DNA of 64,000 bases, taken from contig JAWBYA010000006.1 of the NCBI GenBank assembly GCA_038867615.1, positions 33,562 through 97,561 of the forward strand, given 5' to 3'. The notes under the pieces are model-generated. The model had not been told where the DNA came from. It did no database searches and worked only from the letters and a program-made list of their open reading frames with translations. A program made the translations under genes and the position numbers. Below are positions 24,082 through 62,735 of the stretch, in pieces; position 1 is the stretch's first letter, and each line of letters opens with the position of its first letter. Source of the stretch: Sulfolobales archaeon. Its GTDB lineage: Archaea; Thermoproteota; Thermoprotei_A; Sulfolobales; AG1.

Positions 24082-27000
24082 CTATGCTCTCACCCCCTTA
24101 TTGATTAGCTCATCTAATGGGATTAAGAATCTTACAACCTCTATTCTCTCTTCATACTTCAAATTCTCAGCAGGGTTGTTTATGATTATCAGTTCGGGTT
24201 TTTTAGCTGCATTAAGAACAACGTATAACCAATACTGCTCTTTGAATCTTCTAGCCTTGAACCACTCATTCTGAGTCAAAGCTACAGGGCCTATACCAGC
24301 TCTTGCCTTCACTTCGATATACCTTATCTCATTTTTCCCTCTAGATCTTATGTCAAAACCTAGATTCTCTTTTGAAACATCTTCGGGCTCTCTACCTTGT
24401 CTCCTCTCGTATTCCATAGCTATCTGCATACCGATCCTCTCAACCTCTTCGTCCGAAACCATCTCAGGGGCTTTAATCACGGGTTTAACATAGATCGCAC
24501 CTACGAATCTAGGCATCGAGATCGTTAAAGAAGTCTCCTTATCGATCTCTAGTTTTAAGTTTCTCAAGGCCTCCTCATACCGTTTCTTCCTCTCCTCCTT
24601 ATTCCTTATTGCTATCTCTACCTTTTCTCCTCTGGCTTGCCTCTCATAGAGTTCTGCGAGATCAGCGTCCAGCTCGCTTATAAGATATTGTAGAGATCTA
24701 ACACCATACCTTTTCTTAACCTCAGCCTGTCTCGATCGCTCTAAAAGAATTTCTCCTTTGTATCTTTCTGCTATCCTAATCACATTCTTTTCTACTTCCT
24801 CCTTCGACCTAACGGGTTTCTCAACATTTATACCACCCTTCTCCTTAGACGGAACTAGATCCCATATTATTGCAGGGTTAACCTCTTGTAAGTTTTCACC
24901 ATTATCATAGACTGTAATGAGCTTTTTACCCGCCACCTCCCCTTTTCCATCCCTAACTTCTACCTCGAAGAACCAGAGAATCCCATTATATCTCCCAGAA
25001 GGATCCTCAAAAACCGCTCCTCTCCTGAGTTTATGAGAGAAATTCTTCTCTATCCACTCAAGCAGGGCTTCGAGGAGCGGGTGGCCAAAAGAAATGAACT
25101 CCGCATCAGGGTTTTTGAAGGCTAATTCTTTATCGAACGTTACCTTCGGGTACTCCTTCAACACTATTCCATATTTGTTCTTAAAGTTAACATCGTCTGC
25201 CAACTTTCTTATTTCATAAGGTACAGACTCTATCGCGAGGAAACCATCTTTACGCACTCTGAACTTTCCACCAGCAAGCTCCATTGCTTTTTTAAAGAAT
25301 TCTTCCACATATTCAGGTATCAACCTATATTCTTTCGCTTTTTCAGCCATTTCCCTAATCCTTGTATAATCAATATGCCTTGTCGCTAAGCTTTCGCCAA
25401 GAGCTTCTTTGATTTTTCGAATGTAATTTTCATCGATTTTAACATCCAGCTCTTTAATTATCTCGTCAATGCTCCGCGTATTCGCAACAGCCTCTAGGAT
25501 TAACTGGTACAGGTTTTTGCCATAGAATATATCTCCAATCACGTCAAAGACTTTATCGCTTCCCAGAGCCCTTCTTATTTCATCGAGCTTGTCAAGGAGC
25601 TTTATCAGGACTTTCCCTTCCCTAGTGTTCTCAGCTACAAGGTTAAAGACATAAACATCTTTCTGCTGCCCATACCTATGGATCCTTCCCATCCTTTGCT
25701 CAAGCCTATTAGGATTCCATGGTATATCGTAATTGATCATTAAATGACAGAACTGCAGGTTGATACCTTCGCCGCCCGCTTCTGTAGACACCATAATCTG
25801 CGTCTTATCTCTAAAAATCTTCTCTGCACGTATTCTCTCTTCAAGGCTCATCCCGCCATGCATATAATTAACCAAGTAACCCCAGCTTTGTAATTTCTTC
25901 ACCAAATACTCCATGGTATCCTTGGATTCAGTGAAAATCAGGATCTTCTCATTCCCACCGATCTCCCTTATCTTCTTAAAGCCCTCTTCGATAGCCTTTT
26001 TTAGCTCCTGAAGCTTAACCTCACATTCCTCTCTAATAATCTCCTCAGCTTTTTTGATCAAGTTATCGATGGTCTCAATTTCCCTTCTTAACTCCTGCTT
26101 GTTCGCAGCAATACTTACCGTCTCCCACCTTTTTTCATGCTCCCATCTCTCCTTCTCTTCGTAATCCTCAACCTCCTCTAAATCAACTTCTATCTCCTCT
26201 TTGGGAAGCTCGGATTTCTCTAATAGCTCTTCCAAACGCTGCTTTCTCCTTTTAAGGGATTTCAGCAACGCATAGGTGCTCGAAGCCATTCTGCGTTGTA
26301 GTATTAGTAATGCAAAAGCTATATTCCTTCTCCTTTTCTCCTGTATCCTTTCTAACGCAAGGTTATACTGTGTGATCACGTATTTCGATAATTCGTTATA
26401 GAGCTCTGTCTCCTTATCCGAGAGGATGAACTTTATAGTTTTAGGATAGCGATTCGTAAAAATCGGCCTGCCTTCAAAATCCCGTAAGTCCTCTTTCATT
26501 CTCCTAATGAATAAAGGGTTGTCTTTGTTCTTCAAAGATTCATATATCAAATCGGTTGTTGCGAAAAACCCAGGACTTAGAAGGTCTAGGAAAAGCCTGA
26601 AGTTCTCAGGATCTCCCTTATGTGGGGTAGCCGTAAGAAAGAGAAGATTAGATGCATTCCTCGATAATACCTCACCAAGCTTATATCTTTCAGTCTTTGA
26701 GATTTTATCACCATATTTATATGCCGCCATCTTATGGGCTTCATCTACTATCACTAAGTCCCAATCAACATTCTGAAGAGAAAGCAATATATCATCCTGT
26801 TTCGCAAAATCCATCGATGTGATAACCTGGTTCTCCCTCTCCCACGGGTTTTCCCCATAATGTGCATAGAAAGAACTTCTGTCAATTATCGTAAAATGTT
26901 CGTGAAACTTTTCCTTCAGCTCTCTCAACCACTGATCCTTGAGATGACCGGGAACAACTATCAAAGTGCGATTAACAACACCTCTAAGTTTAAGCTCCTT

Positions 27001-27420
27001 ATGAACAAGCCCTGCCATGATTGTCTTACCAGCTCCCGGATCGTCTGCTAAAAGGAACCTAACCTTCGGCAATTTAAGAATATACCCATAAACCGCCTCT
27101 ATCTGAAATGGGAGAGGATCTATTTTTGATACATTCATTGCTAAAAGAGGGTCGAACAATGATGCAAACCTATACCTTTCAGCCTCAATCGCTAAAAAAG
27201 CCTCTTCTGAAGGGGTTGAGAAATCTAATGAAACATCTTCCACCTCCAGCTTTTCATAATCGCTCTTCGATATCAATTGATCTACGAATCTTCGAGAATG
27301 AAGAGTAACCCCAATAACACGGACATATTCATCTATCTCCTCGATCTTCTTGACTTCTATTGGTTCAGGCCAGAGAGGTCCCTTAACAATCGACCCCTCC
27401 TTAATTATTTGATGCATCAT
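24082..27420 (-). CDS. SNF2-family helicase with C-terminal DUF3883 nuclease domain
   Basis: LLADDPGAGKT, DEAH, TATPH, QRMGRIHRYGQ and C-terminal GFDIRS...IEVKAR. Start placed at ATG 27420 after a GTGAGG SD. Confidence 0.93.
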   Translation of the reverse strand: MMHQIIKEGSIVKGPLWPEPIEVKKIEEIDEYVRVIGVTLHSRRFVDQLISKSDYEKLEVEDVSLDFSTPSEEAFLAIEAERYRFASLFDPLLAMNVSKIDPLPFQIEAVYGYILKLPKVRFLLADDPGAGKTIMAGLVHKELKLRGVVNRTLIVVPGHLKDQWLRELKEKFHEHFTIIDRSSFYAHYGENPWERENQVITSMDFAKQDDILLSLQNVDWDLVIVDEAHKMAAYKYGDKISKTERYKLGEVLSRNASNLLFLTATPHKGDPENFRLFLDLLSPGFFATTDLIYESLKNKDNPLFIRRMKEDLRDFEGRPIFTNRYPKTIKFILSDKETELYNELSKYVITQYNLALERIQEKRRRNIAFALLILQRRMASSTYALLKSLKRRKQRLEELLEKSELPKEEIEVDLEEVEDYEEKERWEHEKRWETVSIAANKQELRREIETIDNLIKKAEEIIREECEVKLQELKKAIEEGFKKIREIGGNEKILIFTESKDTMEYLVKKLQSWGYLVNYMHGGMSLEERIRAEKIFRDKTQIMVSTEAGGEGINLQFCHLMINYDIPWNPNRLEQRMGRIHRYGQQKDVYVFNLVAENTREGKVLIKLLDKLDEIRRALGSDKVFDVIGDIFYGKNLYQLILEAVANTRSIDEIIKELDVKIDENYIRKIKEALGESLATRHIDYTRIREMAEKAKEYRLIPEYVEEFFKKAMELAGGKFRVRKDGFLAIESVPYEIRKLADDVNFKNKYGIVLKEYPKVTFDKELAFKNPDAEFISFGHPLLEALLEWIEKNFSHKLRRGAVFEDPSGRYNGILWFFEVEVRDGKGEVAGKKLITVYDNGENLQEVNPAIIWDLVPSKEKGGINVEKPVRSKEEVEKNVIRIAERYKGEILLERSRQAEVKKRYGVRSLQYLISELDADLAELYERQARGEKVEIAIRNKEERKKRYEEALRNLKLEIDKETSLTISMPRFVGAIYVKPVIKAPEMVSDEEVERIGMQIAMEYERRQGREPEDVSKENLGFDIRSRGKNEIRYIEVKARAGIGPVALTQNEWFKARRFKEQYWLYVVLNAAKKPELIIINNPAENLKYEERIEVVRFLIPLDELINKGVRA

Positions 27421-27498
27421 TTTCCTCACTCTATAATAACATGAGGATAATATATCATTAATTATTATCAATAAATTAACAACAAAAATCTTTACCAA

Positions 27499-27543: not shown

Positions 27544-28696
27544 AGTATTTTAAGCCTCAGTCTATATGAGACTATAAACCAGTTGGATTAGGATGTTGTA
27601 TAGCAGGGGAAAGCGTTATGTGAAGGCATATTTCGCAATAAACATGGATGCTTAGGGGTTATAGGTTATTAAAGGTATATATAGCTAGAAGGTTAGATCG
27701 GCTATAACCAGTGATAGCTCTAATTAGGGGTTCTGCGGAGCTGTTTCTTACTTAGAGGTCTTTCCATTTTGTGGTTAGTGTGGCGGCTAGGATGAAGATT
27801 GCTGATAGGGTTGCTAGTATTATGAATGGTGTTAGTGCTGCTTCTGGTTTTTGGAGGATGAGGGTTTGTCTTAATCCTTCGCTGAAGTAGTAGAGGGGTA
27901 GTGTTTGGGCGATTTGCTGCATATATCCTGGCATGATTTCTAGGGGCCAGAAGGAGCCGGATAGGAACATCATTGGGAAGGCTATTGTGTTGCCTAGTGC
28001 TGTGGCAGCCTCTACATCTTTAACCAGTCCTCCTAGGAATACTCCCATGCTGCAGAAAGCAATAGAGCCTAGGAGGATTAGGAGTATTGCATATATGTCT
28101 GGGATTGCTTTGATCCCAAAGACAGCCCAGCCCAGGGCTATCATGACCGTCATTAGCATTAATGCTAGTAATGCCTGCACCAATATGTTACCCAGTATCC
28201 ATGTCGGCTTTGAGAGTGGTGTTGCAATCAGTCTCTTCAGAACACCAGTCCTCCTGTATTCCGAGATGTTGGATGTAACCCCTATCAACCCGTTGGTCAT
28301 GATGAAGGCAGCAATATAGCCTGGCAGATAGTAGTCAACAGCCTTAAGTCCTCGCACCTTGACAGCCTCCTGCTCGAGGGAGATGATAGGTGAGGCGCCT
28401 ATCATCCTCTCACCAAACTTAGCAGCTATGTTATCTATAACCCCCCTTATGATCGGGGCAGCCTGGTCGGCAGGGCTGGTTAGAAGGATAAGCCGTGCTG
28501 GTTTAGCTTCAAGGCTTATATTAGCCCTCTCTATCCAAGAGACCCCTTGCTCTAGATACTGGCGCTGAGACTCATTCATATACTGACCAAACCTCTCTAG
28601 AATAAGCTTCATCATACCGAAAGACACCTGGAACCTGACAGCCATATCCGCCTGGATCAGGCTCTTCTCAAAACCCTCAGGTATTATGAGAACACG

Positions 28697-29049
28697 CCAT
28701 AGCCAGCTGTTTCAGGTTTCATGATGGTTTATAGGGGTTGATATTAAACCCGAGTTCTGCAGTAATGGAACATTATATAAGCTCTGAAATATTTATGGAT
28801 ACCCGCCCAACAATGAGGGTAGAGATAGAGACCCAAGTGGGCGGGTTAAAGGTAAAGAGATCCAGGATGTGGGGGTTTCCCCACAGCAGTGAACCAGAGC
28901 AATGCAATGAAGGGGAGCTGTGGGCTGGGGTCACCCCGAACGGGTGGAGGCCAGTGATAAGGGCTCCAATGAAAGGAGCCCTGAGGCCTATGAAGCCAAG
29001 GGCTGAGCGGTTGGTATTTTTATATCAACCGCTATGAAGCCCGAACCCC
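28697..29049 (+). mobile_element. IS607-like non-autonomous element (MITE), copy A, 353 bp
   Basis: Ends CCATAGCCAGCTGTTTC... and ...GCTATGAAGCCCGAACCCC. Near-colinear with 62183-62528, with a CC core at both junctions. Confidence 0.88.
28801..29049 (+). ncRNA. Predicted structured RNA (omega-RNA/reRNA-like) inside MITE copy A
   Basis: TTATATAA at 28773-28780. Stems at 28801-09/28838-46, 28880-87/28917-24, 28961-67/28975-81 and 29007-13/29026-32, with equivalents in copy D. Confidence 0.5.
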
Positions 29050-29352
29050 TGCTCTGAAAACCCGCACCACGTGTCATATATTCTTGAGCATCGATCCCAG
29101 GATCTATCTCTTTTACATTGAACACACTCTGGTTAAGCAGATCTATGAACACCTTTGAGAGCGCCGTGGGCTCGCCATCTGGCTGGCGATCTAGATTCTG
29201 CACCTCCAGCGTGTAGGAAACCTGCTGCTCACCACCAAACACGGTTCCAAAGATGAGCAGAAGCATTGCTGGGAAGAGGAAGCTGAAGAAAACACCAGTC
29301 CTGCTCCTCAACCAGTTCTTGAGAAGCATCTCCACCAGAACCAACAACCCCT

Positions 29353-30294
29353 TCACGCCAGATCACCCGTCTCAGTCAACCTAGCACCCGTTAGCCTTAG
29401 AAAAGCTTCCTCCAACCCGCCATGGGTCATCTCAGCACCGCCAGTATAGCCTGACTCGTAGAGCTTTGAAAGAATCGAAGCCGCTTCCTGGTGCGATAGA
29501 CCACTAACTATAACCCTACCCTCAGGAGTCCTGATCCACTCATAACCCATCCTAGATAGTGTTTCCTCCACATTCTGGCTAGAACCCGATAGGATAAGGC
29601 GGACACCTCTGCTCTCTCTCCGTATTAATCCTTCTACACTATCGAGAGCAACGATCTTACCTTTAAGCATGATAGCTACCCTATCGCTAAGCCTCTCAGC
29701 CTCCTCTAGATAGTGTGTCGTGAGAACCACAGTCTTCCCATAACGCTTAAGAGACTGGATAAACCTCCAAGTCTCCCTCCTAGCATATACATCAAGCCCT
29801 GTTGTGGGCTCGTCCAGAAACACCAACTCAGGATCGCTGACAAGAGCCATGGCTATACCAACACGCCTCTTAAGGCCTCCAGAGAGCTTCATATAGAGCC
29901 TCTTACGATACTCCCACAACCCGAGCTCCTCGAGAAGCCTCTTGAGATCGGGTTTCACACCATATATCGCAGCGATAAGCCTCACATTCTCCTCAACAGT
30001 AAGCCTATCAATAGCATTGAACTCCTGCGGCATCACACCAATGAGGCGCTTGATCTTCCTAACCTGACCCTCATCCCTAACATCATAACCAAACACACGC
30101 ACCTCGCCCGAGGTAGCGGATCTGAGGCAAGCGATTATCTCCACAGTTGTTGTCTTCCCCGCACCATTATGGCCTAGGAGTGAAAAGACCTCCCCCTGCT
30201 TAACGCTGAAACTCACATTATCCACAGCCAACAGGTTTCCATATCTTTTTGTAAGCTGATGAACCTCGATAACATCTCTAGTCATTGTAACCAT
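29353..30294 (-). CDS. ABC-2 (drug exporter type) ATP-binding protein
   Basis: GHNGAGKTT, LSGG, FLDEPT and TTHY. Confidence 0.95.
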   Translation of the reverse strand: MVTMTRDVIEVHQLTKRYGNLLAVDNVSFSVKQGEVFSLLGHNGAGKTTTVEIIACLRSATSGEVRVFGYDVRDEGQVRKIKRLIGVMPQEFNAIDRLTVEENVRLIAAIYGVKPDLKRLLEELGLWEYRKRLYMKLSGGLKRRVGIAMALVSDPELVFLDEPTTGLDVYARRETWRFIQSLKRYGKTVVLTTHYLEEAERLSDRVAIMLKGKIVALDSVEGLIRRESRGVRLILSGSSQNVEETLSRMGYEWIRTPEGRVIVSGLSHQEAASILSKLYESGYTGGAEMTHGGLEEAFLRLTGARLTETGDLA

Positions 30295-30378
30295 CCATCT
30301 TTTAATAACCTATAACAACACGAGGGTAATATATCGATATAGGGAGGTAATGGGGGTTAGGAGCTCTGGATGTTGTAG

Positions 30379-40064: not shown

Positions 40065-40324
40065 GAGGTTCGGGCTTCATAGCAGTTGATTTTTACCAAC
40101 AGCTCTTCCCTTGACTTCCTCGACCTCCACTCATCCAGAGAAACCCCAACCCACAGCACCACATAGCACCGCACCGGCCCATCCACTCGGATCTCTATCT
40201 CTACTCTCATCGTTGGGCGGGCATCCCCATAGAATAATAGAGCCTATAAGCATGATGTTATTGCAGAACCGCGAGTTTAATACCAATCCATAACCATCCT
40301 CAAACCCGAAACAGCTGGCTACGG
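40065..40324 (-). mobile_element. IS607-like MITE, copy B, 260 bp, diverged and internally deleted
   Basis: Reverse complement starts CCGTAGCCAGCTGTTTCGGGTTTG and ends ATCAACTGCTATGAAGCCCGAACCTC. Confidence 0.85.
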
Positions 40325-45894: not shown

Positions 45895-46025
45895 CCGTAG
45901 CCAGCCGTTCCGGGTTTCATGATAATTTATAAGAACTGACATTAAACCCGTAGTTCTGCAATAATGGAACATAGTATAAGCCCTGCTATTCTATTAGGAA
46001 TCAATAGCTATGAAACCCAAACCCC
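45895..46025 (+). mobile_element. IS607-like MITE, copy C, 131 bp (ends only)
   Basis: CCGTAGCCAGCCGTTCCGGGTTTCATGA ... GCTATGAAACCCAAACCCC. The central structured part is missing, and the last C is the G of the glgP TAG stop. Confidence 0.85.
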
Positions 46026-62025: not shown

Positions 62026-62735
62026 TCCTGATCTCCTCCACAGTTTCTCTCAACCTTCAACCTCCTCACGAGAATAATCCCTACCAATATACCTAGACGT
62101 GATATAAGCATCTTCCAACGAGCCTAACTCCACAGCATATCTTAACAAAAGCTCTCTAACATCTTCTCGCCCAGAGAGATCGCCGTAGCCAGCTGTTTCG
62201 GATTTCATGATGGTTTATAAGGATTGATATTAAACCCGTAGTTCTGCAGTAATGAACATTATATAAGCTCTTATATTTCACTGGGATGACCGCCCAACAA
62301 TGAGGGTAAAAATAAAGACCCGAGGGGCGGGTTAAATAAAAACCAGGATGTGGGGGTTTCCCCACAGCAATGAACTAGAGCAAAGCTATGAAGGGGAGCT
62401 GTGGGTTGGGGTCACCCCGAATGGGTGGAGGCCAATGATAAGGGCTCCAATGAAAGGAGCCCTGAGGCCTATGAAACCAAGGGAAGAGCGGTTGATATAA
62501 AAATCAACTGCTATGAAGCCCGAACCCCTATCAGCTCTAGGAGCCTCCTCACGCTATGTGTCCTTGGATAATCTGCTCCTAGTTTGAGGAGACATGCTTT
62601 TAGGTATAGCTGGATAGACTGCTCAAGACTGAGGACTGCGAGATCATAGAATCCACGATCAATCTGAATAATAGAGGTCTCGAAAAACCTCCTAGACCGC
62701 TCAAGCAGATATTCTGCCTCACCCCGCTTAGTCAA
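61991..62735 (-). pseudogene. HEPN-domain gene split by a MITE and frameshifted
   Basis: LEQSIQLYLKA...YPRTH...LLELI joins GDLSG...LEDAYITSRY after removing 344 bp. A further 1-nt frameshift lies near 62056. Confidence 0.88.
62183..62528 (+). mobile_element. IS607-like MITE, copy D, 346 bp
   Basis: CCGTAGCCAGCTGTTTC ... GCTATGAAGCCCGAACCCC, colinear with copy A, with TTATATAA at 62259-62266. Confidence 0.9.

Follow-up and report, generated by a model that had tools for sequence, protein, structure and literature searches.

Stand-alone guide RNAs (ωRNAs) that act in trans were reportedly described by Altae-Tran et al. in 2021, as cited by a later paper. Mobilised stand-alone ωRNAs without an effector occur in genomes that carry OMEGA loci and work in trans, according to a passage of PMC10691335, and palindrome-associated transposable elements (PATEs) often encode ωRNAs that need action in trans (PMC10055086, Meers et al. 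2023 preprint, in part). The PATEs of Haloquadratum walsbyi arose from IS605/IS1341-type elements by deletion of the core, one of them keeping C-terminal coding sequence, and haloarchaeal PATEs are mobile despite few or no intact tnpA genes (PMC3119063); that paper predates the ωRNA, and its sections cited here are silent on any promoter or RNA. Here we describe a 351-nt element, copy A, in a window of 64,000 nucleotides from a Sulfolobales archaeon (contig JAWBYA010000006.1; C6:33562-97561 in our contig notation, the source genome, G000, being 2.22 Mb in 28 contigs and 94% complete). Copy A is almost certainly a non-coding miniature inverted-repeat transposable element (MITE) of the PATE kind that derives from an IS1341-type tnpB element of the same genome and carries an RNA scaffold. 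That this scaffold functions as RNA, so that the MITE is a PATE-like stand-alone ωRNA element used in trans by TnpB, we consider, on balance, probable. An earlier note on this DNA had called the locus the best candidate in the window for a novel system. The literature, however, already contains stand-alone ωRNAs, and PATEs too, on which TnpB or IscB acts in trans (passages of PMC10691335 and PMC10055086), and the MITE is a good new example of such elements, no new kind of system.

Like the stand-alone ωRNAs and PATEs of OMEGA systems, the MITE is short, non-coding and multi-copy, shares its ends with a tnpB element that resides alongside it in the genome, carries a scaffold with the guide position just outside its right end, and would need its nuclease in trans. 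It differs from them in its host, a hyperthermophilic crenarchaeon with related records under the label Desulfurococcaceae, in the TATA box and transcription factor B recognition element (BRE) of tnpB fused about 20 nt before the scaffold, in the kink-turn (K-turn)-like motif within that scaffold, in that no cognate TnpA was found, and in being known here from sequence alone. With the haloarchaeal PATEs, as portrayed in parts of PMC3119063, it has in common an archaeal host, the absence of any gene for a transposase, palindromes near the termini and, apparently, insertion without target duplication, whereas its host belongs to another phylum and the sequences show no similarity.

Queried with blastn against its own genome, copy A gives 112 high-scoring segment pairs, and the family there amounts to about 18 full copies plus deletion variants, with 24 end-paired elements; repeat finding and blastn place four copies in the window (Table 1). 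The boundaries are set by 18 aligned full copies and by the flanks of 41 left and 37 right ends: similarity between copies ends exactly after ...GAACCCC, and the flanks beyond the 37 right ends are unrelated. The earlier note had located the repeat at 28773-29070, where a repeat indeed lies, with limits that need correction, as the element starts further left and 29050-29070 is unique flank outside the repeat unit. The motifs it had listed for copy A (TTATATAA, four stems, AGTGATA, CTGA and a peptide) are all found where it had placed them.

The zinc-ribbon domain of TnpB (PF07282) is matched at five places in the source genome, two of which (C1:12309-12488 and C1:51361-51540) coincide with blast matches of the MITE. 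The first lies within a 460-codon open frame that, read from its ATG, encodes a protein of 457 aa (P0001); the parent is a tnpB-only insertion sequence (IS) of IS1341 type at G000:C1:11134-12700. The MITE aligns with it piece by piece. MITE positions 1-49 match the left end of this IS (75.5% identity, and 83.7% with a second, broken IS copy), positions 74-86 (AACATTATATAAG) are a 13/13 match 27 nt upstream of the tnpB ATG, positions 106-153 match the zinc-ribbon coding region (81.6%), and positions 167-354 match the tnpB 3′ end and right end (87.4% over 190 nt, E = 8e-65; 84.7% for the second IS copy). Read from left to right, the MITE thus strings together the left end, the tnpB promoter, the hairpin from the zinc-ribbon region, a short linker and, last, the tail of tnpB joined to the right end. 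Ends, GCC target and TnpB tail are common to both, whereas three stretches are missing from the MITE: about 150 nt that follow the left end, about 335 codons for the body of TnpB, and 82 nt between stem-loop S1 and the core. This indicates that the MITE arose by internal deletions from the tnpB-only IS still present at that locus. Homology to tnpB 3′ regions, on which the earlier note had made its proposal depend, is therefore present. Its statement that promoter and scaffold were kept agrees with the retained 13-mer, which holds the TATA box, and with the retained tail and right end; its statement that all protein coding had been deleted does not, as two tnpB fragments remain, apparently as RNA scaffold. 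A degraded tnpB in a public record of a Thermoproteota metagenome-assembled genome (L022) has the zinc-ribbon hairpin almost directly joined to the tail scaffold, in MITE-like fashion, and may represent the type of deletion intermediate behind the MITE.

The plus strand of copy A contains an open reading frame (ORF; 28738-29037, 99 aa) that translates as ...MWGFPHSSEPEQCNEGELWAGVTPNGWRPVIRAPMKGALRPMKPRAERL..., and the likeness of this translation to a TnpB tail, suggested in the earlier note, is borne out by the intact TnpB, which ends ...KMWGFPHSNEPEEIYEGELWVGVTLNGWRPRIWAPMIGALRPMKPREERL..., ...KMWGFPHSNEPEEIYEGELWVGVTLNGWRPRIWAPMIGALRPMKPREERLISFDINRYEARTPP. The ORF was nevertheless rejected as a peptide. 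It is without a Pfam match, and 25 of 43 tail-only matches of P0001 in the genome have in-frame stops, so the MITE tail is not kept as a peptide.

The stretch 28800-29049 is predicted to fold as RNA at -108.2 kcal/mol (z = -5.67), a value that none of 200 shuffles equals. Covariation was scored on a core alignment (A2) of 30 tnpB 3′ ends and stand-alone copies from the source genome, from related genomes and from 31 public loci that a P0001 query had retrieved; its rows were hand-chosen from blast hits, near-identical MITE copies and the family-C row L011 being omitted, and the helices scored were S2, S3, S4, the small hairpin, the 4-bp closing helix and two long-range helices. In A2, 92.7% of 1152 cells are paired, as against 33-53% with slid partners. 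Changes on both sides occur at 13 pairs and in 50 cells. Shuffles average 7.9 such pairs and 17.2 such cells, and of 500 shuffles one attains the observed number of pairs and none the observed number of cells; slid partners give 2-8 pairs and at most 11 cells. The covariation score is reached by none of 500 shuffles. S2 is paired in 98.3% of cells with double changes at two pairs, its place in the family-C tnpB being taken by CCCAGGAGCC/GGCTCCTGGG, and two pairs of S4 covary through GC/CG swaps. The clearest exchanges are in S3 (column pair 109/122: AU 9, CG 7, UA 7, UG 3) and in the closing helix (column pair 93/137: GC 14, AU 6, CG 3). By our reading, the covarying positions of S3 are synonymous third positions in the tnpB genes (Ala GCT/GCC/GCA with Gly GGA/GGG/GGT), so that the tnpB tail would be constrained both as protein and as RNA. 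S1 (81.6% identical to C1:12381-12428) has compensated variants, namely CCTGCCC/GGGCAGG in the IS, CCCGCCC/GGGCGGG in the MITE, CCTACCC/GGGTAGG in L022 and GAGCC/GGCTC in G008. Variation in S2b (92.7% paired) is one-sided, mostly G-C to G-U. Three alternative pairings are possible: a GUGGGG/CCCCAC hairpin, which competes with S2, and the long-range helices GGGG...CCCC (3′ end) and CGGGU...GCCCG proposed by RNAalifold, which are mostly invariant. Together these comparisons argue that the tnpB tail and right end form a conserved structured RNA, the putative ωRNA scaffold of this family.

Within the core, AGTGATA (28953-59) and CTGA (28981-84) occupy an asymmetric internal loop, flanked on one side by the closing helix (GGCC/GGCC) and on the other by S3. 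A K-turn consists of a canonical stem, a 3-nt bulge, tandem G-A/A-G pairs and a second stem; here a 3-nt bulge is followed by GA, with a facing GA adjoining the closing helix, in 25 of the 30 rows, and both flanking stems covary. Four rows have AA for GA, and two extra unpaired bases precede S3. The loop looks like a K-turn and might, conjecturally, bind L7Ae. The K-turn-like arrangement noticed in the earlier note thus stands, and its assignment to a box C/D pair does not extend to a box C/D small RNA (sRNA). As in the K-turn of archaeal box C/D sRNAs, one C-like and one D-like box are present, with tandem GA by the closing helix, a resemblance of motif only; unlike those RNAs, the MITE has no C′/D′ boxes, antisense guide or Rfam match. 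That the element encodes such an RNA, or some other L7Ae-dependent small RNA unrelated to TnpB, would accord with the way a stem by a covarying closing helix is bracketed by C-like GUGAUAA and D-like CUGA in those 25 rows; we give it a minute probability, in view of the stem-loop that fills the space of any C′/D′ pair or between-box guide (none was seen), the empty Rfam search (no family match at E up to 10), and the position of the motif inside the tnpB tail in every tnpB-linked homologue.

By our reading, the two element ends are imperfect inverted copies of each other, the left tip lying farther from its palindrome; a small GGGTT/AACCC hairpin stands about 43 nt from the left tip and S4 stands 17 nt from the right tip, so that subterminal hairpins are present at both ends. 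This asymmetry is known for IS605-type elements and PATEs (PMC3119063, in part), and IS200/IS605 ends have subterminal hairpins (passages of PMC10055086 and PMC3119063). The stems might on these grounds be single-stranded DNA hairpins recognised by a transposase, that is, signals for transposition. This is very improbable: only S4 is subterminal, whereas S1, S2, S2b and the K-turn-like hairpin are internal by 60-250 nt and belong to the tnpB 3′ end, the region in which ωRNAs are found, and deletion variants without internal stems still spread. Moreover, G-U outnumbers A-C (67 to 31 cells; 22 to 13 pairs), which weakly favours folding of a plus-strand transcript.

The nuclease that would use such a transcript looks intact. 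P0001 matches the TnpB/Cas12f TNB domain PF07282 (E = 7.9e-14) and, weakly, solved TnpB/Cas12f chains. D207, E287 and D363, which we take from known TnpB motifs to be the RuvC triad, are invariant in seven homologues together with the four zinc-ribbon cysteines (L018, whose stretch contains stops, was excluded from the protein alignment). Against its own genome P0001 finds one intact copy, one copy broken by stops, the 43 tail-only matches and one second family. The frame of TnpB (C1:11373-12746; L009 474-1847; also L010 and L011) has no stop inside the element and runs through the right end, to stop in the flank, immediately in one copy and 43 nt past the right end in another, so that the C-terminal extension differs from insertion to insertion. 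The second TnpB family (G000:C6:23953-25287, 43% identical; open frame of 462 codons at C6:23920-25305, L011) lies about 8 kb before the window and has a different tail, a right end that also reads ...TATGAGACCCAAACCCC, and equivalent stems of different sequence.

The TATA box of copy A, with its BRE, is, by its 13-mer, the retained tnpB promoter; the 13-mer occurs twice in the window against 0.15 expected. In the 18 copies few segments vary less than the TATA box (nucleotide diversity, pi, 0.054, against 0.20 on either side; the S2 arms have pi 0.034). Archaeal TATA boxes are centred near -26/-27. Transcription would accordingly start near 28801-28804, at the first bases of S1, and yield a scaffold of about 248 nt plus guide. 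No sequencing run listed for this DNA is on record as RNA, and reads on 27700-30300 were not usable: two metatranscriptomes gave none, one gave five partial reads from relatives, and one run of uncertain kind gave three contig pieces from other copies. A conserved TATA box facing the right flank might instead make the element a mobile promoter that alters expression to its right, in copy A as antisense RNA against an ABC transporter operon, within whose permease gene the element lies in antisense orientation. The roughly 270 nt of structured RNA between promoter and flank render this very improbable.

Under the ωRNA reading, the retained promoter would start an RNA that crosses the scaffold and leaves the right end into the flank, where it would acquire a copy-specific guide of 16-20 nt. 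The single intact cognate TnpB would bind this RNA in trans; once an element had been excised, the complex would cleave the empty site (HGCC plus flank), so that recombination with a sister copy would restore the MITE. Such a cut-and-restore role has been shown for IS605-family TnpB in bacteria (PMC10055086, in part). The scaffold would in this way be a selfish retention device common to about 23 stand-alone loci, with no host guide repertoire. The guide position proposed in the earlier note accords with the copies, whose sequences after ...GAACCCC, where a guide would start, are unrelated. Its idea of a dispersed guide-RNA repertoire is not: of 37 candidate guides, not one matches the source genome in full at a second, GCC-preceded site, the best other matches being 17/17 after GGC and 18/20 after CTA, and nothing therefore points to host-level targeting.

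A covariance model of the core (R1), run on 21 genomes at E <= 1e-5, matches eight of them, including all five of the same genus and two of five of a sister genus. It finds 83 matches in the source genome, and among the matches listed 25 are full-model at 147 bits or more, only two attached to tnpB and 23 standing alone. With R1 the MITEs score in the same range as the two tnpB 3′ ends (209-230 bits); only one of the two scaffold-linked cognate tnpB genes is intact. The 24 elements with both ends comprise one broken IS, 13 with every feature and 10 deletion variants without one or more stems.

These counts bear on the chief alternative, an inert relic: a deletion derivative moved by way of its ends, in which promoter and scaffold are carried along in young copies and have no RNA function. 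We hold this to be possible, though doubtful. Several observations favour it and tell against a functional RNA. In an alignment of MITEs only (A1, 19 rows) covariation is not above shuffles (five pairs where 3.2 are expected, a count that 74 of 500 shuffles attain; covariation score reached by 85 of 500), and the MITE copies may keep the fold only through youth. The covariance comparison proposed in the earlier note is thus split, with stems that covary across lineages and no significant signal among MITE copies alone. Paired columns of MITE copies are less diverse than unpaired ones by a marginal difference (0.110 against 0.167, one-sided p = 0.053). Deletion variants without S2, S3 or S1 have also multiplied (10 of the 24 paired elements), several of them as recurrent classes, and spread therefore does not depend on the scaffold; the 129 nt of copy C include none of it, and the TATA box of copy B is degenerate. 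Archaeal RNA polymerase can terminate at T tracts, and copy A has T5 at 29017-29021 in the S4 loop, absent from the other 17 of the 18 aligned copies, at which it may terminate before the guide. The MITE is without the 82 nt that lie between S1 and core in the IS, its compatibility with TnpB being assumed, and the empty Rfam search counts on the same side.

The mobilising enzyme is a further difficulty of this kind. The Y1 transposase domain PF01797 has no match in the source genome, at 94% completeness, and among 21 related genomes it is matched in three, none of the three loci having both MITE ends: L065 and L066 nowhere resemble the MITE, and in L067 the resemblance is limited to a 20-nt match on the minus strand. 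An IS605-like element with Y1 TnpA in a same-genus genome was rejected as the source, having no ends in common with the MITE. The sole PF00239 match in the source genome, G000:C23:6589-7203, is a resolvase/invertase-type serine recombinase near a contig end. The domain layout of IS607 TnpA differs from that of resolvases. The gene was accordingly dismissed as an IS607 TnpA, given its resolvase layout of N-terminal catalytic domain and C-terminal helix-turn-helix.

Against the inert relic stand the low diversity of the TATA box and S2 arms, the least variable segments of the 18 copies (around 0.20 nearby), the 13 of 24 paired elements that keep every feature, the 23 stand-alone full scaffolds among the matches listed, and the use of stand-alone ωRNAs in trans in other systems (PMC10691335, in part).

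The left ends also define the target. At 41 of them, G (38/41), C (35/41) and C (38/41) precede R-TAGCCAGCTG, and both IS copies likewise have GCC directly before the left end. The base before GCC is A in 20, C in 10, T in 10 and G in one, and A occupies the next position outward in 21 of 41. The earlier note had suggested YGCC as target-adjacent motif (TAM); with A the most frequent base, the candidate TAM becomes HGCC. One copy (C1:235505-235854, minus strand) is inserted in another repeat family, five members of which offer uninterrupted paralogous sites (...CTCCAA-GCC-ATCC..., one with ACC), against ...CTCCAA-GCC-[element]-ATCT... at the occupied site. GCC is thus target sequence, and the element enters directly 3′ of it; with the element ending in CCCC, a 2-nt CC duplication is compatible with the junction, one occupied site having been compared. 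The struck family is dispersed, with at least six copies about 75-85% alike, of which one carries the MITE and the others (G000:C1:536015, 114480, 233010, 239250 and 485540) serve as empty-site controls.

Table 1. Positions of the element, its parts, its flanks and the other family copies in the window
Feature	Position	Strand	Remark
Target trinucleotide GCC	28696..28698	+	left of insertion; candidate TAM core (HGCC)
MITE/PATE copy A	28699..29049	+	351 nt
Left end	28699..28744	+	common with the tnpB IS
TATA box TTATATAA	28773..28780	+	BRE-like GGAACA upstream; 20 nt before S1
S1 stem-loop	28801..28846	+	ACCCGCCCA 28801-09 / TGGGCGGGT 28838-46; from tnpB zinc-ribbon coding part
S2 stem	28880..28924	+	CCCACAGC 28880-87 / GCTGTGGG 28917-24; 29-nt loop
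S2b small hairpin	28926..28938	+	UGGGG-UCA-CCCCG
K-turn-like hairpin	28949..28988	+	C-stem GGCC/GGCC, bulge AGU, GA...GA, then S3 GGGCUCC/GGAGCCC
S3 stem	28961-67 / 28975-81	+	GGGCTCC / GGAGCCC
S4 right-end subterminal hairpin	29007..29032	+	GCGGTTG 29007-13 / CAACCGC 29026-32
Right-end tail ...TATGAAGCCCGAACCCC	29033..29049	+	last element bases; near-invariant in 37 right ends
Flank at guide position TGCTCTGAAAACCCGC	29050..29065	+	by position; matches only its own site in the genome
ABC-2 permease gene, C-terminal part	27752..28645	-	ORF list
ABC-2 permease gene, N-terminal part	29050..29356	-	ORF 28988-29356 extends from the flank into the MITE
Copy B	40065..40322	-	decayed deletion variant, 261-nt class, degenerate TATA
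Copy C	45897..46025	+	minimal, 129 nt: left end, degenerate TATA, right-end tail; no scaffold
Copy D	62185..62528	+	full-length; covariance-model match 224.3 bits

Copy A, on the plus strand, splits a minus-strand ABC-2 permease gene, the halves of which, by our reading, rejoin in frame when the element after GCC is taken out. The permease (27752-29356) and an ATPase gene (29353-30294) form an ABC-2 type transporter operon on the minus strand. The right flank of copy A (29050-29650, the N-terminal part of the permease gene and the 3′ end of the ATPase gene) has no DNA match in five same-genus genomes; a 2-kb query matched only the ATPase gene, in other genera, and gave no empty site for copy A. 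The exact ABC-2 junction therefore rests on frame logic and on the paralogous empty sites of the other copy. Just upstream of the transporter operon, 24082-27498 on the minus strand is an ORF of 1138 aa, presumably an SNF2-family helicase-like protein with a long C-terminal extension, to judge from the sequence as read. Elsewhere in the window, 2291-2771 is a tandem array with a period of 33 nt (12.5 copies, 72% matches), apparently a protein-coding repeat of 11 residues and no CRISPR.

A literature search on TnpB, MITE/PATE, archaea and L7Ae found no description of this MITE family or of an ωRNA K-turn, although supplementary tables may list similar stand-alone ωRNAs of archaea. A bolder and, in our judgement, unlikely extension is that in these hyperthermophilic crenarchaea a conserved K-turn of the ωRNA brings L7Ae into the nuclease complex as its third subunit, the MITEs being guide cassettes that transcribe themselves from the captured tnpB promoter. 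One TnpB gene would in that case guard at least 20 loci in a genome where no TnpA is recognisable, and IS1341-type elements would be mobilised by some as yet unknown route.

The family offers a natural case in which a guide-RNA scaffold has been amplified about 23-fold over the nuclease gene, in a very-high-temperature lineage, with stand-alone copies that each carry the nuclease gene's own archaeal promoter. It provides a TnpB/ωRNA pair that is compact, is probably thermostable and has a G+C-rich candidate TAM, as well as a candidate K-turn in an ωRNA. It is also a further example of IS1341-type spread with no findable TnpA, a puzzle already noted in haloarchaea (PMC3119063, in part).

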